Origin: a virus
Reading direction: 5' to 3' (one strand)
DNA: 64,000 nt
IMG/VR virus record: IMGVR_UViG_3300009159_008968
Span: 71,410-135,409 of that record
The position numbers and the translations under genes were made by a program. The notes under the pieces were generated by a model. It did no database searches and was not told where the DNA came from. It was given only the letters and a program-made list of their open reading frames with translations. Positions 17,116-34,902 of this stretch are shown here, piece after piece. Position 1 is the first letter of the stretch. The number at the start of each line of letters is the position of its first letter.

Positions 17116-18651
17116 ATGTTGAATAAAAATATAATTAAAGACGCATTAGCTGATGCTAAAGAAATTGAAAAGTTTGCAATTGAGCAAGCTAGAAAATCTT
17201 TAGAAGAAGCTTTAATGCCTCAAATAGAAAAAGCGATTCAAGATAGTCTTCAAGAAAATACAACAGTAGAATCAGTTGAAGAAAATGAAATTGAAACTAT
17301 AACAATTTCTGAATCCTTTGAATCATCAGACAATTTAATATCTGAAAATACAAACTCACAAAATATACAAGAAATGTACAACGAAAAAGAAGAAACAAAT
17401 GAAGAGCTATTCGAGGTTGAAGGTCTTTTTGAAGATGAAGAAACTGCCCAAGAACCTACTGAAGCTTCATTAGAAGCAAAGCTTGATGCTATGACTGCTA
17501 AACTTGATACATTAATAGCTGCTGCACAAGGTGGTGGCGAAGAAGAAGCTTCTGCTGAAGGAGAAGTGGAAGTAGTAGATGATGAAGCTGCTGAAGCACC
17601 TGCTGCTCCAGCTCCAGCTGAACCTGCTGCTGCTGCATCGGCTCCGGCTGCACCTGCTGCTCCAGCTCCAGCTGAACAGCCTACTGTTACTGAAGATACC
17701 ATGTTTGAAATAGAAATGGAAGAAGACATGGAAGAAGGTCTTTTTGAAATGGAAGAAGATATGGAAGAAGGCATGGAAGAAGGTGATAAAGTTTATGAAA
17801 TAAACGTTGAAGAAGATATGGAAGAAGGTGATAAAGTTTATGAAATAAACGTTGAAGAAGATATGGAAGAAGGAGAAAGTGAAGTTGATCCTAAAACTGG
17901 TTTGCCTTTACCTCCAAAAGAGTATGGTGGAATTAAAGGTGGAATGGTTGGCGAGGACATGGAAGAAGGTCTTTATGAAATTGACATGGAAGAAGACATG
18001 GAAGAAGGTTGGAAAAAAGTTGAAGAAGATATGGAAGAAGAAGGAATGTTTGAAGTTGAAATGGAAGAAGGCGATATGGAAGAGTCAAGAAGTTTAGCTT
18101 TTTCTTCAAAAAATCGTGGTCCAAGATATAATCATAACAATTTACCTAAACATGCTCCAGTAACTACTCCAGCAAAAGGGTTAAATGAATCAAAAATAAA
18201 AGCTCAATATGAGTCTAAATTAGACGAGTTAATAAAGGAAAACGCAAGTTTAAAAGGTGTGATTAAAAACTACAAATCAAATTTAAAAGAATTTGAAAAT
18301 TCATTTGTAGAATTAAAATCGCAATTAAATGAAATGCAGACTTTCAATGGAAAATTAGCTTATGCAAATAAGTTATTAACCAAAGGTGGTTTGACAAATG
18401 ATGAGAAAATTAGAATAGCTGAGGAATTTGATAAGTGTGCAACTGTTGAAGATGCAAAAAAACTTTATAACAAAATCATCAGTGAAAATAAATTCTCTTC
18501 TAAGTCTAACGCTACTGATAAATTGAAATCTGTAAAGCCTAGCACGGCTTCGGTTCAAAATCTTTCTGAAAACAAAGCTGAAAAGCTTTTTGAAAGTGAA
18601 GAAAGAAGAAGAATGAAAATGCTCGCTGGTATCGTAAAACCAATTAATTAA
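17116..18651 (+). CDS. Prohead scaffold/core protein (gp22-like position)
   Basis: Lies between protease and capsid genes; very acidic EEDMEEG repeats, coiled-coil C-terminus, N.KL.YANKL motif, ends RRRMKMLAGIVKPIN. Confidence 0.85.
   Translation: MLNKNIIKDALADAKEIEKFAIEQARKSLEEALMPQIEKAIQDSLQENTTVESVEENEIETITISESFESSDNLISENTNSQNIQEMYNEKEETNEELFEVEGLFEDEETAQEPTEASLEAKLDAMTAKLDTLIAAAQGGGEEEASAEGEVEVVDDEAAEAPAAPAPAEPAAAASAPAAPAAPAPAEQPTVTEDTMFEIEMEEDMEEGLFEMEEDMEEGMEEGDKVYEINVEEDMEEGDKVYEINVEEDMEEGESEVDPKTGLPLPPKEYGGIKGGMVGEDMEEGLYEIDMEEDMEEGWKKVEEDMEEEGMFEVEMEEGDMEESRSLAFSSKNRGPRYNHNNLPKHAPVTTPAKGLNESKIKAQYESKLDELIKENASLKGVIKNYKSNLKEFENSFVELKSQLNEMQTFNGKLAYANKLLTKGGLTNDEKIRIAEEFDKCATVEDAKKLYNKIISENKFSSKSNATDKLKSVKPSTASVQNLSENKAEKLFESEERRRMKMLAGIVKPIN
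17773..17862 (+). repeat. Exact 45-nt tandem duplication in the scaffold (MEEGDKVYEINVEED x2)
   Basis: atggaagaaggtgataaagtttatgaaataaacgttgaagaagat occurs twice, within a longer EEDMEEG array. Confidence 0.9.
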
Positions 18652-18668
18652 TTAGAAAAATATAAAAA

Positions 18669-20264
18669 ATGTCTGAATTATTAAACAGTGGACAAGTCGG
18701 TATGACCGTACTCCGTAACTTGTCTGAACAAAGAAAACAAATCATCAAAAACTGGGATAACTCTGGTTTACTTGAAGGTTTGAACGGTAACAAAAAAGCT
18801 AATATTGCTCAATTATTAGAGAACCAAGCGTCTCATATGCTTAATGAGGTAACTCTTGATAGTTCTGCTGGTCGTTTCGACACTGTAGCGTTTCCAATGG
18901 TAAGACGTATCTTCTCAAGATTACTTGCTTCTGAAATCGTTTCAGTTCAACCTCTTGCATTACCTTCAGGTTTGTTATTCTACATGGATGCTGCAGTATC
19001 TTCTGATAAAGTAGCTCCTTATTCTGTGGCTAACTCTCAAAATGGTCCTACATTCCCAGCGAATAAATCAGCTTACGAAAGATTTTATGATAACCGTGGT
19101 TATGATGCTTCTTGGGGTGTTGCTACTCAACGTGTTGGTTCTGCAATCTCTATCGGTTCTGGTTCTACTACAACTGGTTTAATTGCTACAGCTGTAACTT
19201 TAAGTTCTAATTTTGATGTGACTCTTAACCAGTCTTATACATCTTTAGTTCTTTCTGCAACTAGTGCAATTAGCTATGCTGGTACACAATTATATGCTGC
19301 TGGTGCAACTGGTGTAACTTACTATTCTAACCTTCAAACTTATGGTGCTGAATTAGTACAAAATGGTAATCCGGGCAATGTAAACAACATCTATAACATC
19401 GTTATTGATTTACGTCCAGCTCCAACATCTACAGCTGCTTATTCTTGGATTCAATCTGCTTTAACAGCTTCGTTTACGCTTACACCAATGTTCTACACTT
19501 ACAATACAATTGAAGCTAGTCCGAACATGTCAGAATTAACTCTTCGTTTCTCTTCTGTAACTGTAAACTCAATTACAAGAAAAATGAGAGCTCATTGGAC
19601 TCCGGAATTAGCTCAAGATTTGGAAGCATACCATTCAATTGATGCTGAAGCTGAATTAACAGCTTTATTATCAGAAGAAGTTGCTGCTGAAATTGACCGT
19701 GAGATCATCCGTGACCTTATCACTGGTGCCATGTTTGAAGCTCGTTGGGATTACCAAGGTCTTCGTGACAATGTTAACTTCTTCGGAACTCAAAAGGACT
19801 GGAACCAAACTTTAATCACTCGTATTAACGAAATTTCTGCTCAGATCCATAAAGCTACTCTTCGTGGTGGCGCTAACTGGGTTATCTGTTCTGCAGAAGC
19901 TGGTGCAATTTTCGATGATTTAGAGTATTTCCATGTAGATTCATCTGCATCTCCTGAGACTGAAAAGTATAACTTAGGTATGGAAAAAATCGGAAACTTA
20001 GGTAACCGTTATGTAGTGTACAAAGATCCTTATATGCCTGCTAACTTAGTATTAGTTGGACACAAAGGTAATACATTCCTTGAAGCTGGTTACGTTTACG
20101 CTCCGTACATTCCTCTTCAATTAACTCAAACGATCTACGATCCGAATGACTTTACACCTCGTAAAGGTATCATGACTCGTTATGCGAAGAAAATGATCAA
20201 TAACCGTTTCTATGGTGTTATCATCCTTGATAATCTTAACACTTATACTCAGGTATATAGCTAA
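18669..20264 (+). CDS. gp23: Major capsid protein, T4 gp23-like
   Basis: AQLLENQ, VSVQPLALPSGLLFY, ELAQDLEAYHSIDAEAEL, EIDREII, YAPYIPL and GIMTRYA motifs. Confidence 0.97.
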   Translation: MSELLNSGQVGMTVLRNLSEQRKQIIKNWDNSGLLEGLNGNKKANIAQLLENQASHMLNEVTLDSSAGRFDTVAFPMVRRIFSRLLASEIVSVQPLALPSGLLFYMDAAVSSDKVAPYSVANSQNGPTFPANKSAYERFYDNRGYDASWGVATQRVGSAISIGSGSTTTGLIATAVTLSSNFDVTLNQSYTSLVLSATSAISYAGTQLYAAGATGVTYYSNLQTYGAELVQNGNPGNVNNIYNIVIDLRPAPTSTAAYSWIQSALTASFTLTPMFYTYNTIEASPNMSELTLRFSSVTVNSITRKMRAHWTPELAQDLEAYHSIDAEAELTALLSEEVAAEIDREIIRDLITGAMFEARWDYQGLRDNVNFFGTQKDWNQTLITRINEISAQIHKATLRGGANWVICSAEAGAIFDDLEYFHVDSSASPETEKYNLGMEKIGNLGNRYVVYKDPYMPANLVLVGHKGNTFLEAGYVYAPYIPLQLTQTIYDPNDFTPRKGIMTRYAKKMINNRFYGVIILDNLNTYTQVYS

Positions 20265-20284
20265 TTTTAAGATTAGTATTATTG

Positions 20285-20312
20285 AAAAGGGCGAGATTTT
20301 TCTCGCCTTTTT
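20285..20312 (+). terminator. Intrinsic terminator after the capsid gene
   Basis: AAAAGGGCGAGA-TTTT-TCTCGCCTTTTT. Confidence 0.8.
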
Positions 20313-20336
20313 CTTTTTCTTTTATATTTATAGTAT

Positions 20337-21092
20337 ATGTCATCAAGAAACTTAAATAAAACTATTGAGTATTTAAAAAAACAAAATAAAATTTTGTTTA
20401 TTACTACTTCTACAAGATGGGATCAGAGTCAAGAACAACCTAAGTCCACTCAATTAGCTTATCATATTGCTGAAGAAGTAGGTTTGGATAAAGTTAAAGT
20501 TATTGATGCTACCAAAATCAAAATTTTTCCATGCGAAGGAAATGTTTCTAGTGTTACAGGGAACGGTTGTGGATTAAAAGATGCTTCTTTAAAAGATGAA
20601 AAAAAGAATCCAACAGGCAATCATAGATGTTGGGCTTCAATAAATCAGCCGGATGATGAATTATGGAAAATTTCTAAAAATATATTTGAGTCTGATGTTG
20701 TAGTATTTTTTGCTTCTACAAGATGGGGTCAAACGAATTCTATCTATCAAAAACTAATTGAAAGGTTAACTTGGATAGAGAATAGACACACAACTTTAAA
20801 AGAGGATAATATTGTAAAAGACATTAAGTCTGGTTTTATAATTGTTGGTCATAATTGGAGAGCTAAAGAAGTAATAGAAGTTCAAAAAAATGTATTAAAA
20901 TTTTTTGGTTTTCAGGTGCCAAATGAATTATTCTGGGGTTATCAATACACCATGAACGTAAATGATGAAACAGAAGAGTCTTACAAAAAAACAATACCTG
21001 CTTTTGAAAAGTTATATAATTTTATTTTGAATAAAACTGCTATTCACGAAGTAAAATTAAGTATCAAAAAGTTATTGAATTTTAAAAAATAA
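20337..21092 (+). CDS. Flavodoxin-fold NAD(P)H-dependent FMN reductase-like protein
   Basis: ILFITTSTR, IFPCEGNVS..GNGCG, HRCWAS and SDVVVFFASTRWG..S..QKLIERL motifs. Confidence 0.7.
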   Translation: MSSRNLNKTIEYLKKQNKILFITTSTRWDQSQEQPKSTQLAYHIAEEVGLDKVKVIDATKIKIFPCEGNVSSVTGNGCGLKDASLKDEKKNPTGNHRCWASINQPDDELWKISKNIFESDVVVFFASTRWGQTNSIYQKLIERLTWIENRHTTLKEDNIVKDIKSGFIIVGHNWRAKEVIEVQKNVLKFFGFQVPNELFWGYQYTMNVNDETEESYKKTIPAFEKLYNFILNKTAIHEVKLSIKKLLNFKK

Positions 21093-21095
21093 TTA

Positions 21096-22559
21096 TTAAG
21101 ATTTTAGTAGTTTATAGAAATTTGAATGTTTATTTACAAATAAAACATCAATTTGAAAAACTCTATCTTCCCATTCATGTATTTCAAAAATATCAAAAGG
21201 ATAGAAATCTTTATTTTCCATATAATTTAAACATTGATAAAAATCCGGAGTTCCTTTGTTATATTCTTTTAATGATAATTCCATTAAAATAAATTCAATA
21301 AAATTATTTTTAAACATATTTTCAGCTCCATCAAAAATATCTAATTCAGATCCTTGTACATCTATTTTAACAAAATTGATATTTGATATTTTATTTTCTT
21401 CTAATAAACTATCAAGAGTTTGAGTTTTTAATTTTTTAATTACAGTAGTTGTTTCATTATAAACAGGTGTATTCTCAATATATAGCGAAGATCCTGTATT
21501 TATATTAGAAAGATCTTCAGTTAGAGTATAAAAATCCTTTTCAACATCTGAATATTTCCATAACAATTTATTGAAATATCTATAATTACTTTCTTTTAAA
21601 TATTGCTCGTTTATAGGATTAGCTTCAAATAGTATTATTTCAGAATAAGGAAATATATGAGTAAATGATTTAGCCCAATGACCTCTCCAAGCACCAATAT
21701 CTAAAACAGTTTTAGGTTTAAATCCTTCATTTCTTATTCTGGTAAATTTATTAATCATTTTTCCATCAAAATAAGAATTGAATTTTTTTGTTTCTCCAAA
21801 AAACTCTATTAACCCTGTTCTTAATGGCCAAGGACCATTTTGATGTACAATAGATGGCAAAGATCCATTTGGGGTTGTTAATCTACCATTATCAATATTA
21901 TAATCTTTTTCAATATTAGTATTACAAAGATTAAAGAAAATATAATTCTGTCTATCTAATTGTATTTCATATTTACCTGAATAAAACATAATTTGCCAAA
22001 CTCCCTGATCAGATGCATAATTAATCTTTTTTTCTGAAATCATTTTTTCTGAATCGCCAAGAATTTTTAAAAAATTTTTAATTTCAGAAAATATCATTCC
22101 CGAATTAAGATATGGACCAGAACCAAGATCTATTCCCATATCCCAATTATCAACTGTTACTTTTAATGGAAATTGGGTTTTTTCAGCACCAAGTAAAGTT
22201 TTTCCATTAAATTCATTTAATTTAAATAATAATTCTTCATTTGAAGAAATAATAATTGTATCAGAATAATCTAAAAATAAAATGTATTTAAAATTGTTTT
22301 TTTTAAGATATTCTTCTAGGCTCTTTTTTAGTAAAATTATTTTATAATAAATATATTCACCCATTGGGCCATAATCATTGGCATATGTTATTTCTTTTTG
22401 TATTTCTCTTTCATAATTAAAAACTTTGTAATTGAATCCTGATTCTATCCATTGCAATTCAAAAGGAAAAAATCCATTTTTACTATCAGTATTATAATCA
22501 CCCCACCGAACAGAACAAATTAACAAATTTTCTTTTGTTATGATTTCTTGTGTATTCAT
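21096..22559 (-). CDS. Fusion of a PLOD/procollagen-type glycosyltransferase domain and an FkbM-family methyltransferase
   Basis: N-half: ILFLDYSD, LLGAEK..FP, YLNSGMI, SDQ, QLDRQNYIFFNL. C-half: VLDIGAWRG, FEANP, KIDVQGSELD, QIDVLF. Confidence 0.75.
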   Translation of the reverse strand: MNTQEIITKENLLICSVRWGDYNTDSKNGFFPFELQWIESGFNYKVFNYEREIQKEITYANDYGPMGEYIYYKIILLKKSLEEYLKKNNFKYILFLDYSDTIIISSNEELLFKLNEFNGKTLLGAEKTQFPLKVTVDNWDMGIDLGSGPYLNSGMIFSEIKNFLKILGDSEKMISEKKINYASDQGVWQIMFYSGKYEIQLDRQNYIFFNLCNTNIEKDYNIDNGRLTTPNGSLPSIVHQNGPWPLRTGLIEFFGETKKFNSYFDGKMINKFTRIRNEGFKPKTVLDIGAWRGHWAKSFTHIFPYSEIILFEANPINEQYLKESNYRYFNKLLWKYSDVEKDFYTLTEDLSNINTGSSLYIENTPVYNETTTVIKKLKTQTLDSLLEENKISNINFVKIDVQGSELDIFDGAENMFKNNFIEFILMELSLKEYNKGTPDFYQCLNYMENKDFYPFDIFEIHEWEDRVFQIDVLFVNKHSNFYKLLKS

Positions 22560-22645
22560 GTTTTACTTTAAAATCTTTATAACCAAAGATAGTATTTTTA
22601 TTTTAAATTTAATATTTTTTAGGTTATTTATTATTAAAACCTTTT

Positions 22646-24148
22646 ATGGATAATTTATCTGAAGAACTCAATATTTTAATTAAAAATCATTTAGATTATT
22701 TAAATGAATCACTTGTAGCTGGAGAAAATGTCCAAGAAGGAGATTTTATTGTAAAAAGTAGTGATAAATCAAAATTAACTGGAGATTTCAAAAAAGATTA
22801 TAACTTATTTTATAAAGTTACTGATTTTACAGAAACAGGAAACTCATTAATTATCAGTTTAGATCAACTTGATAAATGGAGAAATTCAAATAATGTTGAT
22901 AGAACTTTAATGTCAAAAGAGGTAAACCTTAAAGATTACGATGTAATTGATGTTGAAGAAGATTATGCTGATTTTCCTAAAACATATCTTGATGAGGGTA
23001 AAGTAAAATCTTCAAGAATAAAAAGTGGTAGAAAAGTTCCGGGTAAATATCTTACAAAAGATAAAGCAGCTATGAAGGGTGAAATTGAGAGAGTTTCTAA
23101 ATTAAAAGCTGATGATCCATCCGCTTATGGAAAATGGGAAGCAGATTATAAAGCAAGAAACACTAAGTCTGGAGAACCTCATAAAACAAAGAAAAGTGCT
23201 GCAACAATAGCTTATGAAAAAAAGTTTGGTAAAAAAAATGAACAAATGGAAAATTTGAATGAAGATTTTATAAATGAAGAAACAGATGCAATGATAAAAA
23301 ATAAAGCTAAAGCTTCAGGTATATCAGCATCAATATTAAGACAAGTTTATTCTAGAGGAGCTGCCGCTTGGAAAAGTGGTCATAGACCCGGAGTTTCTCA
23401 GCAACAGTGGGCAACTGGAAGAATTAATTCATTTATCACTGGAAGTGGTGGTGCAAGAAAAGCTGATGCTGATCTCTGGGTAAAAGCAAAGAAATCTAAG
23501 AAAAGAAAAAATGAATCTACAGAAGAGCAACTATTAAGAAATAAAATAAGAGAAATTCTTTATGAAGAACTAAATAAAGATCTTGAAGAATTATATCCAA
23601 TGTTAGTTGGTGAAGATGATCTTGAAGAGTTGTATCCAATGTTAGTTGGTGAAGACAATCTTGAAGAAGGATTAGGTAAATATGTAGCTGGAGCTGCCTT
23701 GGCTGCATCGTTAGCTGGTGCTCCAATGAAGAGTTCAGCTCAGACTCCCATAAAGGATTTCGCAAAAGAAAAAATTGCGATGGTACAGGATAAGGTAGGA
23801 AATCTTTTTAATAAAAAAACAACAGCCGACTTTTCACAGAAAGGTGGAGGTGCTGAAGCAAGTATTGATAGTCTTAACAAGATGGTTGGTAAGATTGAGA
23901 AGATTGGTGACAACAGATTTCAGACCGTTGGTACGGCGACATCTGATAACCTTGATATGGCGTTGGATCTTGCAAGAAGTAACGGAATGAACAGCATTGC
24001 GGATGGAGTCAAAGGCAAAGAGATTTCACCGGGAAAAAGAGTTTACTCTGCAAGATTGACGAACACCCAAACGAAAGACGAAAGGGTTTTTCAGAACGAA
24101 GACGGTAGTTACACCTGTTTCATCACAGTTGCCTCTTTTGTGAACTAA
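22646..24148 (+). CDS. Modular putative head protein
   Basis: Glu-rich linkers separate domains including ILRQVYSRGAAAWKSGHRPG; LRNKIREIL helix; DLEELYPMLVGED x2; GC-richer C-terminal module. Confidence 0.65.
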   Translation: MDNLSEELNILIKNHLDYLNESLVAGENVQEGDFIVKSSDKSKLTGDFKKDYNLFYKVTDFTETGNSLIISLDQLDKWRNSNNVDRTLMSKEVNLKDYDVIDVEEDYADFPKTYLDEGKVKSSRIKSGRKVPGKYLTKDKAAMKGEIERVSKLKADDPSAYGKWEADYKARNTKSGEPHKTKKSAATIAYEKKFGKKNEQMENLNEDFINEETDAMIKNKAKASGISASILRQVYSRGAAAWKSGHRPGVSQQQWATGRINSFITGSGGARKADADLWVKAKKSKKRKNESTEEQLLRNKIREILYEELNKDLEELYPMLVGEDDLEELYPMLVGEDNLEEGLGKYVAGAALAASLAGAPMKSSAQTPIKDFAKEKIAMVQDKVGNLFNKKTTADFSQKGGGAEASIDSLNKMVGKIEKIGDNRFQTVGTATSDNLDMALDLARSNGMNSIADGVKGKEISPGKRVYSARLTNTQTKDERVFQNEDGSYTCFITVASFVN

Positions 24149-24187
24149 TAGAATTACCGTTGCAGGCTACGATAAATTAATCAATAT

Positions 24188-24547
24188 TCATTTTTGTGAT
24201 CTTTGATTTGTATAATCTTTTCTATTCCAAGATGGCCCATTATATAGACCATTTTTTAATAAGTTGTAAAATTCTTTTTCACCATACTTTTTTAAAAGTA
24301 TTTCATTACTCAACAATGCTTTTTGTATTGATTTTTCAATTTCTAACATAAGAAAATGCATTTCTTTGCCAGATATTCTACTTAACTCATTCCATGGAAT
24401 TTCTCTATTTGGAGTGACTACTTTTACATCAGTGTAATCACCAATTAAAGATTGTGGAACTTTTCCCGCATGTAAATCTTCAAGTGTATTTCTAACGTGA
24501 CATGCTATAAGAAGAGCCTGTAAACTATTTTTTTCTTTTTTTGTCAT
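24188..24547 (-). CDS. Hypothetical protein
   Basis: 119-aa ORF, third gene of a minus-strand operon. Confidence 0.6.
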   Translation of the reverse strand: MTKKEKNSLQALLIACHVRNTLEDLHAGKVPQSLIGDYTDVKVVTPNREIPWNELSRISGKEMHFLMLEIEKSIQKALLSNEILLKKYGEKEFYNLLKNGLYNGPSWNRKDYTNQRSQK

Positions 24548-24550
24548 ATA

Positions 24551-24947: not shown

Positions 24948-25352
24948 TTAGTAAAGAATATTTAAATTATTCAAAACAATTTTAGCACTATCGTTTTCTA
25001 CGACAGTTTTAATTCTTATTACTCTATTAGTGGCCATTATATTAGCATCATAAGATAAAATAATGTATTTATCATCTTGCATACGGCTATTAATTTTAAT
25101 TTTATAACCGAAATCACAAGATCTATAATAATCTAAAATTTTGTCTTTTCCGTATTTTTTAATTGATTCCTGAGAAGTGAATTTTAACATTTCATCATAT
25201 TTCCCAAATCTATAAAGAGTTTGAAAATATTGGCCAAAATTTGTTCCATACATAAATGATGGATTAGAAAAAGGCTTATCCCCAGAATAAGTTTGAGCCT
25301 GTAAATTAGCTCCATAAAACATAATAATTAAAATTAAAATAATGCGTTTCAT
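24948..25352 (-). CDS. Exported protein
   Basis: Signal peptide MKRIILILIIMFYGANLQA|Q. Confidence 0.65.
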   Translation of the reverse strand: MKRIILILIIMFYGANLQAQTYSGDKPFSNPSFMYGTNFGQYFQTLYRFGKYDEMLKFTSQESIKKYGKDKILDYYRSCDFGYKIKINSRMQDDKYIILSYDANIMATNRVIRIKTVVENDSAKIVLNNLNILY

Positions 25353-26490: not shown

Positions 26491-27663
26491 ATGGAAATTA
26501 GAAAATTAATTAGAAAAATTATAAACGAGTCTTTTTTGACTGAAAACGAAGTAAAAAGAATAGATTTTAATTATCCTTTACCGGAAGATTTAAATAAATT
26601 AAAAAAATACTTTGATGATAACGATTTTGAATTATTTGTTGTAGGCGGAGCAGTACGTGATATGATATTAGGAAAAAATCCTAAAGATATTGATTTGGTT
26701 TCTGACGCTACTCCTGATGATGTAAAAAGAATTTTACCAAAAGAATATAAAATTATTCCAAAAGGAGAAGCGTTTGGCATTGTTCAAATAATAACACCAG
26801 AAGGTGGTGATTATGAAATTGCTCGTTACAGAGAAGATATTGGAAAAGGTGATGGAAGAAGACCTGATTCAGTTAAATTCTCAACAATTGATTCTGATGC
26901 TCTAAGAAGAGATTTGACCATTAACGCCCTTTATTATGATGTTAATAAAAATCAAATAATTGATTTTGTTAATGGATATGAAGATATTCTGAAAAGAAAT
27001 ATTAAAACAGTTGGTAAAGCAGAAGAAAGATTTGATGAAGACCGTTTAAGGATTTTGAGAGCTTTTAGATTTGCAGCGAGATTTAATTCAAATTTAGATC
27101 AAGATATTGTTGATGCTCTGAGAAATAATAATTCTTTAGTGGGAATATCAGAAGAAAGAATTAGAGATGAGTTTTTAAAAGGAATTCAAAGCTCACAATC
27201 TGTTGTCAAATTCCTTACTGATTTAGATAACTATGGATTATTAAAACAAATTTTAGGTGACCTAGATTATAACAGTACTGATTTTATAGAAACACATGAT
27301 TATATTGTTTTATTGGCCAATATTTTGAAAACAAATCCAGTTAACAAAATACAATCAAGTTTAAATTCTTTAAAATATACAACTGATGAAATAAAGAAAA
27401 TTGTCTTTTTAGTACTTTTCTTAAAATTTGATCCTGAGTCAGTTTATAATTTCAAAATAAAAGAAAAAGTTTCTAAAATATCTGATGAAGAAGTTTTAGA
27501 ATTCGCTAAAATAAATTCTATGAATATGAATATGGTTCAAAAATTCTTAGATTTTAAATTATCTGTATCTGGAGATGAACTATTGAATAAAGGTTTCAAA
27601 GGAGCCGCTTTAGGTCAAGAAAAAGAAAGATTGGAAACAATTAATTTTTTAGATACATTATAA
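26491..27663 (+). CDS. cca: CCA-adding tRNA nucleotidyltransferase (class II) with an N-terminal extension
   Basis: VVGGAVRD, KDIDLVSDATP, RRDLTINAL, EDRLRILRAFRFA and ISEERIRDEF motifs. Confidence 0.9.
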   Translation: MEIRKLIRKIINESFLTENEVKRIDFNYPLPEDLNKLKKYFDDNDFELFVVGGAVRDMILGKNPKDIDLVSDATPDDVKRILPKEYKIIPKGEAFGIVQIITPEGGDYEIARYREDIGKGDGRRPDSVKFSTIDSDALRRDLTINALYYDVNKNQIIDFVNGYEDILKRNIKTVGKAEERFDEDRLRILRAFRFAARFNSNLDQDIVDALRNNNSLVGISEERIRDEFLKGIQSSQSVVKFLTDLDNYGLLKQILGDLDYNSTDFIETHDYIVLLANILKTNPVNKIQSSLNSLKYTTDEIKKIVFLVLFLKFDPESVYNFKIKEKVSKISDEEVLEFAKINSMNMNMVQKFLDFKLSVSGDELLNKGFKGAALGQEKERLETINFLDTL

Positions 27664-27683
27664 TTTTTCTACTATTTATTTAC

Positions 27684-28451
27684 ATGAAAAAAGATAAAAT
27701 TCCCGGTGGTAAAGCAAAAGGTAAATCTTTGAAAGATATTGCAATGATGCATTCTACCGATAAATCTGATTCTAGAAAAATTGATAAATTACTTGATAGT
27801 CTAAAAATAGAATTAAAAAAAGGAATTAAAACTGAATTGGAACACACAACCAATGAAGAATATGCTAAAGAAATAGCAATGGATCATTTATATGAAGATC
27901 CAAAATATTATACAAAACTTTCAAAAATTGAAGAAATGAAAAATACAAAAAAATTAAATCTTAACGACCTTTCAAGAATGGTGAAAAAAGCCTTGAACGA
28001 AGAGTTTGAGGGCGGCGTGAACTATGACACCGATGTTGCCATTGAGTTAAAATCCAAGGTGGGGCAACTTTCCAAACTTACACCGTATGTTCTTGAATTG
28101 GGAAACAGGGTCGTTTCGGACATTACAGGAAAAGTAAGCGTATACGAAGATACAACACTCAAAAAGAAATTCAATAACGTTGATGATTTACTTAAGGGTA
28201 TAAAATATGGTCCAACAAGAATAACAGAAGAAGATTCTTCAATGCCACATAAAGATCATGAAGCTATGATGGCGAAAGCAGAGATTCGTGATATGGTTAA
28301 AAATGCGAAAGAAGTTTATAAAATGATTCAACCGGGTGATGAACTTCCGGGTTGGGTTTCGGCTTATATAACTTTAGCTTCTGATTATATGCATAGCATC
28401 GCTGAATATATGACTGAAAAGAATAGTTCAGGTGAAGATTTAGAACAATAA
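27684..28451 (+). CDS. Three-module putative head protein
   Basis: KGIKTELEHT..AKEIAMDHLYEDPKYYTKL module, GC-richer middle module, C-terminal DELPGWVSAYITLASDYM module. Confidence 0.6.
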   Translation: MKKDKIPGGKAKGKSLKDIAMMHSTDKSDSRKIDKLLDSLKIELKKGIKTELEHTTNEEYAKEIAMDHLYEDPKYYTKLSKIEEMKNTKKLNLNDLSRMVKKALNEEFEGGVNYDTDVAIELKSKVGQLSKLTPYVLELGNRVVSDITGKVSVYEDTTLKKKFNNVDDLLKGIKYGPTRITEEDSSMPHKDHEAMMAKAEIRDMVKNAKEVYKMIQPGDELPGWVSAYITLASDYMHSIAEYMTEKNSSGEDLEQ

Positions 28452-28470
28452 AATTTTTAAAATAAAAAAT

Positions 28471-28498
28471 TAACCCCGACTACAAATCGGGGTTTTTT
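28471..28498. terminator. Terminator hairpin between convergent genes
   Basis: AACCCCGA-CTACAAA-TCGGGGTT flanked by A and T runs. Confidence 0.75.
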
Positions 28499-29520
28499 AT
28501 GAATGGTTTTTCGTAAGCAGGTTCAATTATTTTCCATATTATATAATCGTATTTTTTACCATCTAACATCTTAAATAATATAGCTGGGTATTTTTGTTTT
28601 TTTGCATACTCTGCAAAATCAGCTCTGGTTTCACCTAAATTCCAAGAATGAAATCTATGAAATAATTTATTAGATTCTTGTTCAATAGATTTATAATTGT
28701 TTTCTAATGTAAGCTTAGTGTCTTTTACCCAATTATAAAATTCATCTGGAACTTTATCTAATATCTCATTAAAATCACCTCCATCAACTAAAAATTGCCA
28801 AATAGTTCTTGATGAAACTTGAGTCAAAATCCTATGCAAGCGAACATACTCATCAAACTTAACTTTTAAACGAAATCCGTTTTGGAATTTGACAACAAAT
28901 CCTTCTTTGTTATTCTCTTCTAATTTTTTTAATTCATTTATATCTTTGATCCCATCGTATCTTTTTACAATAGGAAATCCAATAGGTTCTAACTCACAAT
29001 CTAAACCCGTTTCTTTATCTATAACAGCTAACAAAATTATATCATGAGTATTACCATAATTTACACAAATACGATTCTCGGGGTAGATTATTTCAAACAA
29101 ATATGTTTTTGTTTTATCTAATCTAGGAATAACATTTATATACCTGTTATGTAAAATCTTAGTTGCATAAATTGCTTGATCAGATTCGAAAGAACCTCTT
29201 GTTGCAATAAATGGTTCATCACCTATCCAATACAATATTCCTAAAGACCCATCCATTTTTTCATAAACTTCAAAAGGTAATGAAGGTATTTCCTCATTGG
29301 TATGTTCTTCTAAATTAAAAAACTTCTTAAATGGACGTGCAATTACATTATAGTTTGAATCTAATATTAATCCTCTACATTGTAAGGTAATATCATTCCA
29401 CAACCTCTCATATTGCACTTTTGGTCCATAATTATAAATGAAATAGTCAGCAGTTTTATGCTTCTGCACGATGATCATTTTATCATCTATCATCTTATTT
29501 AAATCGCTGATATTTAACAT
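28480..29520 (-). CDS. T4 Rnl1/RnlA-like RNA ligase
   Basis: CRGLIL, ARPFKKFFN, motif I EKMDGSL, FEII, motif IV EGFVV and motif V RLKVKFDEY. Confidence 0.88.
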   Translation of the reverse strand: MLNISDLNKMIDDKMIIVQKHKTADYFIYNYGPKVQYERLWNDITLQCRGLILDSNYNVIARPFKKFFNLEEHTNEEIPSLPFEVYEKMDGSLGILYWIGDEPFIATRGSFESDQAIYATKILHNRYINVIPRLDKTKTYLFEIIYPENRICVNYGNTHDIILLAVIDKETGLDCELEPIGFPIVKRYDGIKDINELKKLEENNKEGFVVKFQNGFRLKVKFDEYVRLHRILTQVSSRTIWQFLVDGGDFNEILDKVPDEFYNWVKDTKLTLENNYKSIEQESNKLFHRFHSWNLGETRADFAEYAKKQKYPAILFKMLDGKKYDYIIWKIIEPAYEKPFIKNPDL

Positions 29521-29538
29521 TTCTTTCTCTTTTAAACA

Positions 29539-29570
29539 AATTTAAACGAAAATTACTTAAATTAGTTACA
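29539..29570 (-). promoter_or_regulatory. TGTAACT-N15-CGTTTAAATT motif, copy 3
   Basis: Upstream of the RNA ligase; continues as TAAATTTG, which matches the Bacteroidota -7 consensus. Confidence 0.6.
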
Positions 29571-29592
29571 TATTTATTAAAAAAAGATTTAT

Positions 29593-30072
29593 ATGTTTGA
29601 GAGAAAAATAAGAAAGACTGTTCGTGAAATCATGGAACAAGAATATATTAAAGATCAATCTGTCTATGATATTGTTGGAAAAAAAATGGGTGATATATTT
29701 CCAAGTAATCCCGGTATAAATAAAATAAGAAATAAAACTATCACATACGCAAAATTATTTGAAGGTGGTGAAGAGTTTAAAGGATATTACTCTTCAAAAG
29801 AATATTTAAGAAATGAAGGTTATGAATCAGGATCTATGATGAGAGATTATCCTATACCTTTTATGAAAATGGGTAAAACTCATGTTGATAATAGAGGAAA
29901 TACTATGATCATAACTAAATACGAAGAAGAACGACCTTTGATAATTACAAAATATGATGCACTTTCTGCTGAAAGTTTTGCTGAACTAGATGGAGTTATA
30001 ATTCCAGCTCCAGATCAAAATAATATGAGAGAGGGAAGTATCTATGTTGTATTCTTTAATTTTCCTGATTAA
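29593..30072 (+). CDS. Hypothetical protein with N-terminal RKIRKTVREIME helix
   Basis: 159-aa ORF; TATTTAT at 29571..29577. Confidence 0.6.
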   Translation: MFERKIRKTVREIMEQEYIKDQSVYDIVGKKMGDIFPSNPGINKIRNKTITYAKLFEGGEEFKGYYSSKEYLRNEGYESGSMMRDYPIPFMKMGKTHVDNRGNTMIITKYEEERPLIITKYDALSAESFAELDGVIIPAPDQNNMREGSIYVVFFNFPD

Positions 30073-30456
30073 TTATTTGATCTCGTCAATTAAACCAAAT
30101 AGATTTTTATTGATTATTCTGTACCACTGTTCTCTATTCCATTCAAATCCTAAATTGCCATAGTTCTTTTCAAATTCTATTATTTCTTTGACTATGACAG
30201 TTTGATCATTTGGATTTATCCTTTCCCATTCTTTTAATATCCAATCTACAACTGTGTTAACGGCTCCTGTTTTTCTACCTACAGCGTATCTTACACAAAA
30301 AATAATCATAGTAGAATCACAAATGAATTTTTCATCTCTATAAAAAAATGTATCCTCAGTTAATATGTTTAAAATATAATCTTTATTATCTTTTATATAT
30401 TTTTTGAAGTCGTTTTCAGAATTGAAGTTTTTAGGAAATTTTTTACTTTTTTTCAT
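30073..30456 (-). CDS. Hypothetical protein
   Basis: 127-aa ORF with a CVRYAVGRKT motif. Confidence 0.6.
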   Translation of the reverse strand: MKKSKKFPKNFNSENDFKKYIKDNKDYILNILTEDTFFYRDEKFICDSTMIIFCVRYAVGRKTGAVNTVVDWILKEWERINPNDQTVIVKEIIEFEKNYGNLGFEWNREQWYRIINKNLFGLIDEIK

Positions 30457-30497
30457 TTTTACATTCTATTTATTAATATAGTATAAACTCAAATAAA

Positions 30498-30788
30498 ATG
30501 AAACTTAATAAACAAGAATTTTTTAACCTTATAAAAGAAGAAGTAAAAAAAGCTATTGAGGAAATTAATACACTTAATGAAGGTAAAACAAAAAAGAAAA
30601 AACCTTCAGCTGGTTTGACTGCAAAAGAAAAATCTAAAGTGGTTAAAAAAGCTAAAAAAGGTGGAGATATAGGTAAAAAAGGAAAAGGTTTTGAAGATGT
30701 TGTAGCAAAGGCAAAAGAATGGGGTGCTGATGATCCAGAAGCTGTAGCAGCTGCAGCAATGTGGAAAAATATTAAAAGAGGTAAATAA
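30498..30788 (+). CDS. Small basic putative head protein
   Basis: FFNLIKEEVKKAIEE helix, then GADDPEAVAAAAMW; TATTTAT at 30467..30473. Confidence 0.6.
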   Translation: MKLNKQEFFNLIKEEVKKAIEEINTLNEGKTKKKKPSAGLTAKEKSKVVKKAKKGGDIGKKGKGFEDVVAKAKEWGADDPEAVAAAAMWKNIKRGK

Positions 30789-30789
30789 T

Positions 30790-31104
30790 ATGATAGATAT
30801 TCACGCTGATCCCGGTTCTTATATTCAAGGAGCAAATAATATTGCATTATCTAACTCATTTAAAAAATTATTAAATGCTAGACCAGATACAACTATTCCA
30901 TTTTTCTTTGATAAAGACGGAAAACAATATATGGGAAGAGCTAAAACAATGTCTGGTGCTAAAGGTGATTATCCAACTTACTACATTAATTTTTTTGAAT
31001 TAGATAATGAAGAAACTGGATTAAAAAAAATAGAATCAAAAATTTTTGCAAAAGGTAGATTAGAATTAGAAGAGAAATTATACGACTATTATAATTCTTT
31101 ATAA
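30790..31104 (+). CDS. Hypothetical protein
   Basis: 104-aa ORF coupled to the previous gene. Confidence 0.55.
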   Translation: MIDIHADPGSYIQGANNIALSNSFKKLLNARPDTTIPFFFDKDGKQYMGRAKTMSGAKGDYPTYYINFFELDNEETGLKKIESKIFAKGRLELEEKLYDYYNSL

Positions 31105-31113
31105 TAAATTACA

Positions 31114-31344
31114 ATGAAAAGTGCTTTAAACAAATCACTTAAATTCTTTTTTATAATTGGTTTTTTGATGTTTTTATTAAATTCATCACAAGAAAAATCT
31201 ACATATAATAAAATAAAATTTTCTCAAAATAGTTGTTCAACAGTAATAATGCCCAATTATAAAAGTTTTTTTATAAAGCATTATGAATCTAAATATAATT
31301 TTCTTTATAACGATATTACTCCTATAAAGAACCAGAGCAAATAA
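31114..31344 (+). CDS. Small membrane or exported protein
   Basis: N-terminal hydrophobic segment. Confidence 0.45.
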   Translation: MKSALNKSLKFFFIIGFLMFLLNSSQEKSTYNKIKFSQNSCSTVIMPNYKSFFIKHYESKYNFLYNDITPIKNQSK

Positions 31345-31385
31345 GTTTTTATTTGTTCTTAAAAACTTTTTAAACTTATATAATC

Positions 31386-32492
31386 ATGATTAAAAAATCT
31401 AAAAAAGATTTACACTTTTTTTCAATTAGTGTAATTGTAATTTTGCTTCTTTTTACAACAATAAAGTGTAGTAAAACAGAAGACCGATCTCAAGTTGATT
31501 TGCAAAGATCTTTACCACCAGCAAAAGCAATATTTGATGATACATTAATGAATCCCGGACCAGATCCAGAATTTGTTAATTCAATTGAAGTGACTCCTAC
31601 AAAAAATTATTTAGCAAGAGTTGCTCCTATTAACACAATAACAACTTGGGAAAGATGTATGTATATTGATAAAACAGATACAATCTATACATCCACAACA
31701 GCTTCAAAAAGATTAGCCGGATATTTAAAAAAATATGGATTTAAAGGAGTTTATCTTTATAGCACTTCAGGAATAGTATCATCAACTTCTAACTATGCTA
31801 ATTTCTCTAATTTCCTAAAAACACTAAGTGATAGTGGTATAGTTTACAGAGGAGTAGCTAGTGGTAGTGCAACAACTTTTAGAACTTCTGGTGGAATTGC
31901 TAATTATAATTTGGCTCAATCAGATGCAAATAAAAAAGTTAATAGAGCTAATCTTGAATTAGAATGGTGGAATGGTGTTACAACATGGGATAATTGGAAT
32001 ACAATTAACCAACAAATATTCTATAGTACAATTCCTGATAATGATTTCTATGAAGGTTGGTATAAAAATATGGGTATTACCATTGATACAATCGCATCAA
32101 AAGATCAAGTGAAGTATTCTGATAGAATTCTATTACATTGCTATCAATTAGGCATTCCTACCTATTCCTATGCTAATGCTCAAAGCGCAGGATCAACCGG
32201 AGGAAGATTAGATATAATCGCCAAAGGTGCAAGACAAGCTGGCCGTAAAATAGATTTGTTTATTATAATATCTTCTGAAAATACAGCTTGGGGTGCATCT
32301 AATACTTTTACAGGCCCAGCTTTAGCTAATGCTTATGTTGCAGGACAAAGTAATCCCTATTTGTTTATAGAAAATCAGGCTTATAATAATATATTTGGGA
32401 ATATGACCACATTCCAAAAACAATGGATAAATTTTAAAGGATTTGTGTGGTTTACTAAAAGATATTGCTATAAAGCTGTACCACCGATGTAA
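31386..32492 (+). CDS. Putative lipoprotein, possible TIM-barrel glycoside-hydrolase-like fold
   Basis: Basic N-terminus, hydrophobic core, TIK|CSKTED; alternating motifs GFKGVYLY, NLELEWW and RILLHCY. Confidence 0.55.
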   Translation: MIKKSKKDLHFFSISVIVILLLFTTIKCSKTEDRSQVDLQRSLPPAKAIFDDTLMNPGPDPEFVNSIEVTPTKNYLARVAPINTITTWERCMYIDKTDTIYTSTTASKRLAGYLKKYGFKGVYLYSTSGIVSSTSNYANFSNFLKTLSDSGIVYRGVASGSATTFRTSGGIANYNLAQSDANKKVNRANLELEWWNGVTTWDNWNTINQQIFYSTIPDNDFYEGWYKNMGITIDTIASKDQVKYSDRILLHCYQLGIPTYSYANAQSAGSTGGRLDIIAKGARQAGRKIDLFIIISSENTAWGASNTFTGPALANAYVAGQSNPYLFIENQAYNNIFGNMTTFQKQWINFKGFVWFTKRYCYKAVPPM

Positions 32493-32495
32493 AAT

Positions 32496-32526
32496 AAAAA
32501 GCCCTAGATTTCTCTAGGGTTTTTTT
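32496..32526 (+). terminator. Intrinsic terminator
   Basis: GCCCTAGA-TTTC-TCTAGGGT followed by a T run. Confidence 0.75.
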
Positions 32527-32594
32527 GTAATCCCGATTGGATTCAAAATATGAGTCTATTTAGCTAAACTAGATAAATTATAGCTCAATGGATA
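32527..32594. pseudogene. tRNA-derived fragments flanking the HNH gene
   Basis: 32527..32547 matches the tRNA-Arg 3' end at 33129..33149 at 18/21 nt; 32581..32594 TAGCTCAATGGATA resembles a D-arm on the opposite strand. Confidence 0.5.
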
Positions 32595-32622
32595 ATATTT
32601 TTTTTTATCCATATTTATTATT

Positions 32623-33129
32623 ATGGAAAAACAAATACTAATAGAATTTATAGAAAAAAATTTTAGCATATCTAAAATTTCTTTAGAAACAAATCTTAGT
32701 AAAACTACTATTAATTATTGGTTAAAAAAATACTCTTTAAAAACATTATCTCAAAATAAAAAAGAAAAGATATGTCCAAGATGTAAAACTAAAAAATTAT
32801 TAGAAGATTTCTATAACAGAAGAAATAAATTTGGAGGTTCTGTTTATTGCAAGAAGTGTACAAACAATCAAATTAAAGAAAGACAAACAGAATATAAAAA
32901 AAAATGTGTTGATTACAAAGGTGGATGTTGTTCTATAAAAAATTGTGGCTATAACAAGTGTCTTACTGCATTAGAATTTCATCATTTGGATCCTAGCAAA
33001 AAGGATTTTTCTATAGGTGAAAAAAAACAATTTTGTTTTGATGAGAGTATTAAAAAGGAATTAGACAAATGTATTTTAGTATGTTCAAACCACCATCGAG
33101 AAATTCATGCTGGTTTAATTGTGCTTTAG
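32623..33129 (+). CDS. HNH endonuclease with N-terminal HTH-like and Zn-finger segments
   Basis: CPRC..CKKC, LEFHHLDP and ELDKCILVCSNHHREIH motifs. Confidence 0.85.
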   Translation: MEKQILIEFIEKNFSISKISLETNLSKTTINYWLKKYSLKTLSQNKKEKICPRCKTKKLLEDFYNRRNKFGGSVYCKKCTNNQIKERQTEYKKKCVDYKGGCCSIKNCGYNKCLTALEFHHLDPSKKDFSIGEKKQFCFDESIKKELDKCILVCSNHHREIHAGLIVL

Positions 33130-33203
33130 TGATTCCGATTGGATTCGAACCAATGGCCATTTCTTTAGAAGAGAAATGCTCTGTCCAGCTGAGCTACGGA
33201 ACC
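33130..33203 (-). tRNA. tRNA-Arg(UCU), no encoded CCA
   Basis: GGTTCCG/CGGAATC acceptor stem, GCTC/GAGC D-stem, TTTCT-CTTCTAA-AGAAA anticodon arm, TTCGAAT T-loop; 3' end reads A-CTA. Confidence 0.92.
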
Positions 33204-33209
33204 ATGTTG

Positions 33210-33281
33210 TAGCGGGAGAAGGATTCGAACCTCCGACTTCCAGATTATGAGTCTGGTGACCCACCTCTGGTCCATCCCGCA
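33210..33281 (-). tRNA. tRNA-Met(CAU), initiator-like, no encoded CCA
   Basis: TGCGGGA/TCCCGCT with T1:T72 mismatch, GACC/GGTC D-stem, CCAGA-CTCATAA-TCTGG, TTCGAAT; 3' end reads A-CAA. Confidence 0.9.
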
Positions 33282-33348
33282 ATAGAACTTGTGTTACAAA
33301 TATAATAAAAAAAAATTATTTTAAAAATAATTTTATAATTTTTTCATG

Positions 33349-33432
33349 TACTCGGGGCGAGACTCGAACTCGCACGGCCACAATGACCAACAGATTTTAA
33401 GTCTGTCTTGGCTACCTTTACAACACCCGAGC
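33349..33432 (-). tRNA. tRNA-Leu(UAA), no encoded CCA
   Basis: GCTCGGG/CCCGAGT, ACAGA-CTTAAAA-TCTGT, long variable arm, TTCGAGT; 3' end reads A-CAT. Confidence 0.92.
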
Positions 33433-33494
33433 ATATATTTTTCAAAGAACAACAATGCAAATATATATAAAATATATATAAAAAGCAAATATAT

Positions 33495-33528
33495 AAAAAA
33501 ACGGCCCAAAAACATATTTTGGACCGTT
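33495..33528 (-). terminator. Terminator-like hairpin between the 33551 ORF and tRNA-Leu
   Basis: Minus strand reads AACGGTCCAAAA-loop-TTTTGGGCCGTT plus T run. Confidence 0.55.
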
Positions 33529-33550
33529 AAATTAATTTATTACCAGAATT

Positions 33551-33808
33551 TTATCGGCTCCACCATTTCATAAGTTGACGGTGAGTAGCATCAACTTTAC
33601 GCATCATGTCTTTAACCTGATTGCGTTGTTGAGCTGGCATGGACTCCATTCCAGTTGAAAACATAGTAAGAGAACGCTTCATTTCATTGAAATGTTTTCT
33701 CATAGCTCTTTTGTAATCACGAACACGGAAATAACCAGTTGAGCCAACGGTATACGTTTGTGGATTACTTTTACTAACTTTTTCTGTTTTTTTGTTAACT
33801 GTTTTCAT
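33551..33808 (-). CDS. Small basic hypothetical protein
   Basis: Probable start is the ATG at 33808 (MKTVNKK), downstream of TATATTTG at 33843..33850. Confidence 0.55.
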   Translation of the reverse strand: MKTVNKKTEKVSKSNPQTYTVGSTGYFRVRDYKRAMRKHFNEMKRSLTMFSTGMESMPAQQRNQVKDMMRKVDATHRQLMKWWSR

Positions 33809-33859
33809 AGTTTTTATAATTTTGTAATAATTAATTATAAAACAAATATAATATATATA

Positions 33860-34045
33860 ATGAACAATTCCAAGACATTTATTAAAACGCAAGAACAATA
33901 TGAGAAAGCGCTAGAATTATACAGAATATTATGGTTAAATTCCAATAATTTTTCTACAATAAAGGCAAAAGCTTCTTTAATGGAAATAATAGAACAATAC
34001 GAAAGAATGAATTTAAAAAATGATAATATTTTAATTAAAAATTAA
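33860..34045 (+). CDS. Small helical hypothetical protein
   Basis: Probable start is the ATG at 33860 (MNNSKTFIKTQEQYEKAL). Confidence 0.45.
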   Translation: MNNSKTFIKTQEQYEKALELYRILWLNSNNFSTIKAKASLMEIIEQYERMNLKNDNILIKN

Positions 34046-34902
34046 GCCACATTTCTTCTTCTACCCCAAATATTTCCATAATTTTGATCTACTTCTTGTT
34101 TTTTCATAAAAAATAGTTCTCTTGGGGTATATAATTGTTTTTGATCTTCTAATGATAAATCTGGTCCATTTACAGGATAGCTCCATTTAAATCCATTAAA
34201 TTTATTTTGTGTTTTCATTTCTTTAAGAAGATCCATCACAAATCTCATATACTTTTCTATTGGCTTTTTATTTTGTTTTCCTTTAACCTGAGTAATGTTG
34301 CCAGTTTCTTCATTATAAGCTACAGTTACATGAGGTTCTTTAGTTTTCTTATCTCTTAAAGATAATAGGGTAGTAGCTTTACCATCTCTTCCACAATGAC
34401 CCATAGCATTTCCTTCTTCGGGTGAATTATTTGTTTTCAAATCAATCCAATAATATCCTTCTGGATATTGTTTTATAATCTCACCTGATTCATCTGTTAT
34501 TTGACCAGATGCTTGTAAAGTTTGGTGCCATTCAATCGCTGCTTCAAGAGCTTCTTCTAGAGTTTTAATTTGTTTTAAATCAACTTGTTCTCTATTTGGA
34601 AATTTCAACCATTCCATAATAGTATTTACGGTAGTTTCGTTATTTTTTAAATACTCTATAACTTTATTTTGATCTACTTGTGGTAAAATTTCTTTTAAAT
34701 TAGAGCTACTAACACCGTGATCATTAGCATATTGTCTTGTAGACCAATCGCCTAACACTAAGGCATATTTTCCTCCAACATCATTAAGATAAGTAGCAAA
34801 TTCATCTGAAAAACCTAATTTCATTAATTTTTCGTTCTTATTTTCAGTAAGAACTCCAGCTAACATTTTTATTCTTTGTGAATATTTCTCGCTTAATAAC
34901 AT
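34042..34902 (-). CDS. PcfJ-like domain protein with a scaffold-like N-terminal peptide
   Basis: EEGNAMGHCG, LLSLRD..EPHVTV and QVKGKQN motifs. Confidence 0.65.
   Translation of the reverse strand: MLLSEKYSQRIKMLAGVLTENKNEKLMKLGFSDEFATYLNDVGGKYALVLGDWSTRQYANDHGVSSSNLKEILPQVDQNKVIEYLKNNETTVNTIMEWLKFPNREQVDLKQIKTLEEALEAAIEWHQTLQASGQITDESGEIIKQYPEGYYWIDLKTNNSPEEGNAMGHCGRDGKATTLLSLRDKKTKEPHVTVAYNEETGNITQVKGKQNKKPIEKYMRFVMDLLKEMKTQNKFNGFKWSYPVNGPDLSLEDQKQLYTPRELFFMKKQEVDQNYGNIWGRRRNVA

Follow-up and report, generated by a model that had tools for sequence, protein, structure and literature searches.

The terminal peptide of a T4-type phage head scaffold recurs as a leader on unrelated proteins and is a probable prohead address label

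We analysed a 64,000-nucleotide stretch of viral DNA (positions 71,410 to 135,409 of IMG/VR record IMGVR_UViG_3300009159_008968), called the window throughout, which forms the right-hand 64 kb of one virus contig of 135,409 bp with a G+C content of about 28%. The subject of this report is a short peptide that closes the predicted head scaffold protein encoded in the window and that is found again near the start of two other proteins of the same genome. The order of the head module matches that of T4, with the gene for an S77 prohead protease followed by the gene for an acidic protein of 511 amino acids and by that for a gp23-family capsid protein. The features on which the analysis is based are the following (window positions unless stated otherwise):

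16358..17032, plus strand: prohead protease of the T4 gp21 type (Peptidase_S77, Pfam PF03420, E 5.6e-32, 111 bits against a cut-off of 27), with an ATG at 16379
17116..18651, plus strand: head scaffold of 511 amino acids, with acidic repeats in its centre and a total of 18 [IL]-x-E sites, between the S77 protease gene and the gp23-type capsid gene
18586..18594, plus strand: L-F-E (residues 491-493), predicted to be the scaffold's last protease site, directly upstream of the tail peptide
18595..18648, plus strand: 18-residue scaffold tail peptide with the core R-M-K-M-L-A-G-I-V, a core conserved in 63 distinct scaffold tails
18610..18633, plus strand: scaffold peptide RMKMLAGI, residues 499-506 of the 511-residue protein
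18669..20264, plus strand: major capsid protein of the gp23 family (Pfam PF07068, E 3e-74) with L-L-E and L-N-E sites in its N-terminal propeptide region
34042..34902, minus strand: PcfJ-like protein of 286 amino acids, the tagged protein of the window
34843..34902, minus strand: 20-residue leader of the PcfJ-like protein, in which the core (34852..34875) is followed by L-T-E (34843..34851), the predicted cut site
34852..34875, minus strand: peptide RIKMLAGV, residues 10-17 of the 286-residue protein
34917..34923, minus strand: promoter-like heptamer TATTTAT, 21 nucleotides upstream of the ATG of the PcfJ-like gene
genome positions 29725..30426, outside the window: WYL-like protein of 233 amino acids with the third copy of the peptide at its N-terminus, found by the motif search and followed by the predicted cut site L-N-E

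Gene position, residue composition and the presence of 18 [IL]-x-E sites are the reasons for calling the 511-residue protein the scaffold. It shows the traits of the T4 gp22 family in that it is encoded between the protease and major capsid genes and is acidic, rich in helix and rich in protease sites; the density of [IL]-x-E is 3.5 per 100 residues against a genome median of 1.43 (2.4-fold). Searches of Pfam and PHROG gave no match for this protein, which is a positional and compositional analogue of T4 gp22. The S77 protease encoded beside it is the enzyme expected to cut after [IL]-x-E, and its cut at L-F-E is predicted to release the 18-residue tail peptide from the scaffold. The nearest cultured phages, judged by capsid protein and scaffold, are Flavobacterium phage vB_FspM_immuto (immuto) and Microcystis phage Mel-JY01; where their capsid proteins and scaffold C-terminal domains could be matched, identity is 43-45%. 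The protease-scaffold-capsid order is the same in related loci and in immuto, and the scaffold of immuto_2-6A, encoded between the prohead protease and major capsid genes, has the L-A-G tail at its end, arranged as in the phage analysed here. That scaffold gene (NC_055915.1, 125626..126867) is annotated as 'DNA polymerase phi-like protein', probably due to its acidic repeats.

The peptides RMKMLAGI and RIKMLAGV lie where a first-pass annotation of the window, made from the sequence alone, had placed them and are, as it reported, identical at six of eight positions with two conservative changes. The same annotation took the scaffold to end in ...IVK, which was incorrect, as three further residues (PIN) come after. 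A genome-wide motif search, which it had suggested, was run with R.K.LAG[IVL] over the six-frame translation of the whole 135-kb genome. Three matches were obtained where 0.015 were expected, one of them outside the window, and never more than one was present in any of 200 codon-block shuffles. All three copies are located within 25 residues of a protein end, although such residues make up 17% of the proteome, and the genome total comprises one C-terminal copy (scaffold) and two N-terminal copies (PcfJ-like and WYL-like). A weak fourth match near window position 39844, in a frame of 37 codons, was taken as chance. The PcfJ-like and WYL-like proteins align in BLASTP over residues 1-37 only, and their first 20 residues match. 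At the DNA level the three copies differ at synonymous codon positions; the likeness has therefore been kept at the protein level, which indicates selection on the peptide and no recent copying of DNA. The sharing of the peptide is far beyond chance.

The scaffold tail is no local accident of this genome. An alignment of seven scaffold homologues (A5) was used to scan IMG/VR, and more than 541 scaffold relatives were found, which sit at the same gene position; 80 loci were kept and 63 distinct complete C-termini were analysed. Every one of the 63 ends in an L-A-[GN]-h core (h, hydrophobic residue), in the form R-[FLM]-[KQ]-[KQ]-L-A-[GN]-[IL], with glycine in 61 and asparagine in 2, and the nine-residue core R-h-[KQ]-x-L-A-G-[IL]-[IL] ends 61 of the 63 homologues. 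The stop falls two or three residues past the glycine in 86% of the tails, and [ILVFM]-x-E is present nine or ten residues ahead of the leucine of L-A-G in 59 of the 63. Compared position by position, the nine-residue core is the same in N-terminal tags (n = 142) and in scaffold tails (n = 63). The layout of the tail, R-h-K-K-L-A, then G, then I-I-K-stop, resembles in its residues the helix-and-hook pattern that is discussed below for phage 80alpha. A search of the scaffold tail against solved structures found nothing. Variants of tag and of scaffold tail, compared by eye within genomes, showed no covariation beyond the invariant core.

The leader was found on many unrelated bodies and is thus portable. 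Evidence on genomic context comes from seven whole or long virus records, and leader profiles made from three, later ten, leaders (A2 and A3) were searched over whole related records. N-terminal copies on other protein families numbered seven in a 222-kb relative (G002), at least seven in a complete phage of 519 kb (G005), two in a 95-kb fragment (G001) and two in immuto (gp083 and gp230), and at least ten distinct bodies carry the leader across four related genomes. A library in which 15 billion proteins, clustered at 50% identity, are represented by one member per cluster (1.8 billion proteins) was searched as well, and the profile matched 282 clusters at E <= 1e-3, with E values down to 5e-12. 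Among the best 150 of the 282 clusters, 142 have the motif in their first 30 residues and 136 of these 142 have glutamate at +6 after [ILV]-[IL]-x, counts that are partly built in because the profile includes the start methionine and the glutamate. In the genome-level searches, which were made without gene calls, the leader likewise lies directly after the first ATG. A word-indexed search with residues 1-40 of a tagged protein returned close orthologues only, as too few 5-mers are common, and the motif strings had no relevant match in the literature. In every whole or partial genome examined, tagged proteins co-occur with a scaffold that bears the tail. Three control phages that lack this type of scaffold gave no match to the leader profile, and T4 gave a single weak match (E 0.007, 14.5 bits; match uninspected).

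The placement of protease sites around the peptide depends on the protein end at which it is found. After the core, [IL]-x-E is present in 96% of N-terminal copies, which, together with the S77 gene beside the scaffold, supports the suggestion that L-T-E is a protease release site. The five non-scaffold C-terminal copies all have [ILVFM]-x-E upstream of the motif, as the scaffold tails do. Since the cut site comes after the peptide at N-termini and before it at C-termini, the protease would sever the peptide from the body in both cases, and this mirrored placement is the strongest internal argument for an anchor meant to be severed. About 15 library matches have internal or repeated copies with cut sites on both flanks, which suggests that such copies are processing junctions in larger proteins. 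In P0022 (765 amino acids), P0124 (1129 amino acids), P0139 and P0066, two to three internal modules stand between [IL]-x-E sites, or one stands at each end, and these proteins look like polyproteins that would be cut inside the head.

Seventy homologues of the PcfJ-like protein were found. Its Pfam match to PcfJ (PF14284) covers residues 162-218 only and, at 24.0 bits, is marginally below the cut-off of 25; a tagged homologue scores E 2.4e-10, and PF14284 is listed in the precomputed annotation. Foldseek found no solved structural neighbour for the body. The L-A-G leader is retained in orthologues of 76-84% identity, and body homologues of at least 40% identity keep it. Among distant body homologues from the protein library and IMG/VR, some have no leader and the others fall into at least five further leader classes; these classes share the alignment column at which they end, in [IL]-[IL]-E or [IL]-x-E, and some are T4-leader-like. 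For body homologues in Salicola phage SCTP-2 and in megaphages, the alignment begins only at residue 38 or 107. Leaders are thus swapped at one column, and the leader is therefore not part of the fold of the body; nor is the motif an integral part of PcfJ homologues, a possibility that the first-pass annotation had raised. In the 519-kb phage (G005), a leader of the I-x-E-[IV]-R-x-I-L-x-T-E type is found on a PcfJ-like copy and L-A-G leaders are found on other proteins. For one distant PcfJ-like homologue, a single-sequence IMG/VR search found no relative, and an alignment was needed instead.

Structure models made with AlphaFold2 (AF2) agree with a leader set apart from the body. The model of the PcfJ-like protein has a mean predicted local distance difference test score (pLDDT) of 87.5, with a leader helix at residues 5-19 (pLDDT 55-63) and then a break (residues 20-22), after which the body, starting at residue 23, is modelled with confidence. 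The WYL-like protein is modelled with a leader helix followed by a disordered stretch at residues 16-23. Both leader helices have low confidence (pLDDT 48-63 over residues 1-20) and both bodies have high confidence. For the WYL-like body, the top Foldseek rows were PafBC, CapW and BrxR, with probabilities of 0.9-1.0 and E values of only 4e-3 to 3e-2; the predicted fold is closest to WYL-domain defence regulators, without their DNA-binding domain. Only seven of the 65 longer tagged proteins of the library have a Pfam match, and these matches are to AAA_33, ART-PolyVal, PcfJ, 2'-5' RNA ligase, Acb1, SprT-like and GNAT. Of these, ART-PolyVal, SprT-like, GNAT, Acb1 and PcfJ are domain types typical of phage proteins that are injected. 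Iyer and colleagues include ADP-ribosyltransferases and GNATs in their discussion of domains for which packaging and injection are predicted or known (PMC5512222).

We consider the L-A-G peptide to be, with good probability, a detachable prohead-address label that loads the tagged proteins into the capsid. In the mechanism that we propose, the C-terminal peptide would tie the scaffold to another component of the forming prohead, for which the inner surface of the gp23-type capsid protein is the most likely candidate. The peptide itself would be a short amphipathic helix of basic character that breaks at the glycine, with a hydrophobic hook after it, and the PcfJ-like and WYL-like proteins would be drawn into the prohead by making this contact as well. 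Once the prohead is assembled, the S77 protease would cleave the flanking [IL]-x-E, at L-T-E in the PcfJ-like protein and at L-F-E in the scaffold, which would free the tagged protein inside the head for delivery with the DNA and the scaffold for removal. As the leader equals the terminal peptide of the scaffold, a single binding site for the two is the simplest reading. In sequence terms the leader would then be a new class of T4-type capsid-targeting propeptide, one that copies the scaffold's own anchor.

The best-known precedent is the capsid targeting sequence (CTS) of the T4 proteins IPI, IPII, IPIII and Alt, which was reportedly described by Mullaney and Black in 1996. In T4, leaders 10-19 residues long direct internal proteins to the prohead and are cleaved off by the prohead protease gp21 behind L/I-x-E (PMC9026906). 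The L-A-G leader resembles the CTS in being short, N-terminal, placed on unrelated and non-essential proteins and ended by L/I-x-E, in the presence of an S77 protease in a protease-scaffold-capsid gene row, in types of tagged protein that match injected effectors, and in that some homologues of the PcfJ-like body bear T4-like leaders. It differs from the CTS in sequence and length (about 20 residues against 10 in T4), showing no likeness to the T4 leader MKTYQEFIAE as read from NC_000866, and in that its motif is also found at C-terminal and internal positions. A further difference is its identity with the peptide conserved at the C-terminus of the scaffold of the same phage, and this identity suggests a receptor; for T4, the means by which proteins are localised to the scaffolding core 'remain mysterious' (PMC9958956). 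The T4 leader of ipII and ipIII, MKTYQEFIAE|A with the cut marked, does resemble the start of gp22, MLKEQLIAE|A, the two having [FL]-I-A-E-A in common at the same distance from the start (x-Q/E-[FL]-I-A-E-A in both), and this likeness was not found stated in the reviews consulted. A general rule by which each leader class copies a terminus of its own phage's scaffold was tested and is not supported. In one relative (G028) the scaffold tail has diverged to L-x-G and the leader of the PcfJ-like homologue belongs to another class that is unlike it; in another (G027) the protease and scaffold appear fused and again no match was found; only T4 hints at such a rule.

A parallel for the scaffold end itself is found in phage 80alpha, whose scaffold has an amphipathic helix plus a hook (RIIK) in its last 16 residues; these bind the capsid protein at its N-arm and in the A/P cleft, and this C-terminal peptide is copied by CpmB of SaPI1 (Dearborn et al. 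2017; PMC5644958). As in 80alpha, the extreme C-terminus of the scaffold would here be a basic amphipathic helix with a hydrophobic hook ending in I-I-K, and the peptide is found on a second, unrelated protein. Unlike in 80alpha, where binding was established by cryo-electron microscopy and genetics, it is inferred here from sequence; moreover, the 80alpha mimic is a size-determining scaffold with a C-terminal copy, whereas here the copies stand on putative cargo, are mostly N-terminal and are flanked by protease sites. In herpesviruses, the scaffold UL26.5 and the protease UL26 share a C-terminal capsid-binding tail that is released at the maturation site. Both systems would have an anchor tail for the major capsid protein that is shared with a second protein to bring the latter inside, with a head protease cutting just upstream. 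The herpesvirus tail is shared through nested in-frame genes and has a single passenger, the protease, whereas the L-A-G copies are independent and lie on unrelated genes. Encapsulin cargo-loading peptides are also short, portable terminal peptides that load diverse cargo into an HK97-fold shell; unlike the L-A-G peptide, they act without protease removal or a scaffold, and their sequence is different.

The receptor of the peptide is a question on which the T4 literature and the 80alpha parallel point in different directions. We favour the capsid shell because the layout of the peptide matches the basic helix, break and I-I-K end of 80alpha, and the gp23-type capsid protein is the candidate receptor of both scaffold tail and leader, a choice that we make tentatively, the remaining weight falling on the scaffold core. 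The leader could instead be a homotypic association helix that pairs with the C-terminal helices of the scaffold, so that tagged proteins would be built into the core and the shell would not be the receptor; this is our preferred reading in a form with a different binding partner. Like-with-like pairing would explain the exact copying of the scaffold peptide, and in T4 the CTS proteins are placed in the core and co-purify with gp22 (PMC9026906). About ten helical residues, a conserved glycine and a terminal hydrophobic pair, however, are more in keeping with a helix-and-hook seated in a cleft than with a coiled coil (PMC5644958), and the presence of the tail in phages that lack tagged cargo shows that it has a separate role; we regard pairing of this kind as rather unlikely. 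Several other points weigh against the capsid-loading label as we propose it. The T4 CTS is reported to target the scaffold core and not the shell (PMC9026906), and with the hook buried in a receptor, a cut site three residues past the glycine might be hard for the protease to reach. Homology of the scaffold to T4 gp22 was not detectable when alignment A5 was compared with gp22 by hhalign (probability 0.24%), and a search of the literature found no virion proteomics or N-terminal sequencing for this phage, immuto or Mel-JY01. The library counts given above are partly built into the profile. Finally, no N-terminal tags were found in two complete relatives (G006 and G007) and in most partial contigs, although the scaffold tail is present in them. 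With the tail present in many phages that lack tagged cargo, the tail alone does not imply cargo loading and is primarily a feature of the scaffold; cargo use of the peptide arose in some lineages only.

Two further explanations assign the peptide no part in loading the head. It could be an extended recognition or docking element for the S77 protease only, also in the polyprotein-like matches, which would fit its constant position next to [IL]-x-E and the repeated internal copies in large proteins such as P0022 and P0124, which resemble processing junctions. Relative to the cut, however, N-terminal copies place the motif on the P side, and C-terminal copies, those of scaffolds included, place it on the P' side, so that no single subsite model fits; T4 gp21 needs nothing beyond L/I-x-E (PMC9026906), and other leader classes on the same family of tagged proteins lack the motif and have the same terminal site. 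A role in protease docking alone is thus improbable. A function unrelated to the head, such as a helix involved in folding, turnover or translation of late proteins, would make the likeness to the scaffold a convergence on an amphipathic helix. Basic amphipathic helices are common, but convergence would have to account for a core identical at nine positions with an invariant L-A-G and for E values down to 5e-12 against 1.8 billion proteins, as well as for the confinement of the motif to protein ends with mirrored cut sites. It is further opposed by the constant company of tagged proteins and tail-bearing scaffolds in the genomes examined and by the three control phages without a match, and we hold it to be very improbable. 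The detachable address label remains the reading that we prefer. The proposal made in the first-pass annotation is partly supported: each check run that could have refuted it turned out in its favour, motif reuse is borne out and the predicted cut site has support, and packaging, cleavage and docking on the inner capsid surface are what we infer from them. Beyond that proposal, the analysis adds a second tagged protein, a conserved cut site upstream of the scaffold tail and the breadth of the phenomenon, and with these the family-wide conservation of the tail, its positional identity with the leader, the rule of cut-site orientation, the swapping of leaders and a cultured test system.

The heptamer TATTTAT is located 9-37 nucleotides upstream of 47 of the 137 genes, among them those of the protease (27 nucleotides), the scaffold (37 nucleotides), two giant tail proteins and both tagged proteins (21 nucleotides at each, including the gene at genome position 29725); it is also present upstream of window positions 15171, 26491 and 29593. 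We take TATTTAT to be a putative late promoter. A different upstream word, CGTTTAAATT, precedes another set of genes, for example 28480..29520 and 24948..25352 in the window, both on the minus strand, and the two words probably mark two promoter classes.

Other repeated sequences were noted in the window. The scaffold contains a second motif, approximately E-x-x-L-A-F-[SN] with L-P-[KY]-H-A-[PS] 10-15 residues on (window 18094..18165, residues 327-350). It recurs in the C-terminal 35 residues of a 293-residue late protein (window 4155..5036, minus strand) and, likewise C-terminally, in a tagged protein of the 222-kb relative (L022:1486-2331), and may be another borrowed scaffold element. An amphipathic leader class, [IL]-[RK]-x-x-I-x-E, is carried by many late proteins, such as those at window 15171..15629, 26491..27663 and 29593..30072; it differs in sequence from the L-A-G leader, which is distinct from the other leader classes of this genome, as had been claimed. 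Two tandem genes for proteins of 786 amino acids (window 52364..54724 and 54789..57149, plus strand) share their first 25 residues and are diverged paralogues. Two open reading frames of 95 and 88 amino acids (window 45378..45665 and 49636..49902, plus strand) have nearly identical N-terminal 40 residues, and a large open reading frame comes after each.

If the address label is the conserved terminal peptide of the scaffold, the question of how proteins are localised to the prohead becomes a concrete binding experiment with one peptide and few candidate partners. A cultured phage-host pair with the system is available in Flavobacterium phage vB_FspM_immuto_2-6A on Flavobacterium sp. LMO8. The label could also be used as an annotation key, as it marks hundreds of unannotated metagenomic proteins as probably head-packaged and host-directed, with bodies that include ADP-ribosyltransferase, anti-CBASS Acb1-like, SprT-like, GNAT, PcfJ-like and WYL-like proteins, and it flags mis-annotated scaffold genes of the clade. 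A packaged WYL-only protein could interfere with defence sensors of the PafBC, CapW or BrxR type. More tentatively than the choice of receptor, we propose that L-A-G is the capsid-binding helix-and-hook of a very large and mostly uncultured clade of T4-type phages and that cargo proteins captured it repeatedly as a portable tag for loading. This would give the first defined receptor logic for a CTS, in which cargo would compete with the scaffold for one site and the same protease would free the cargo, and it may extend to T4.

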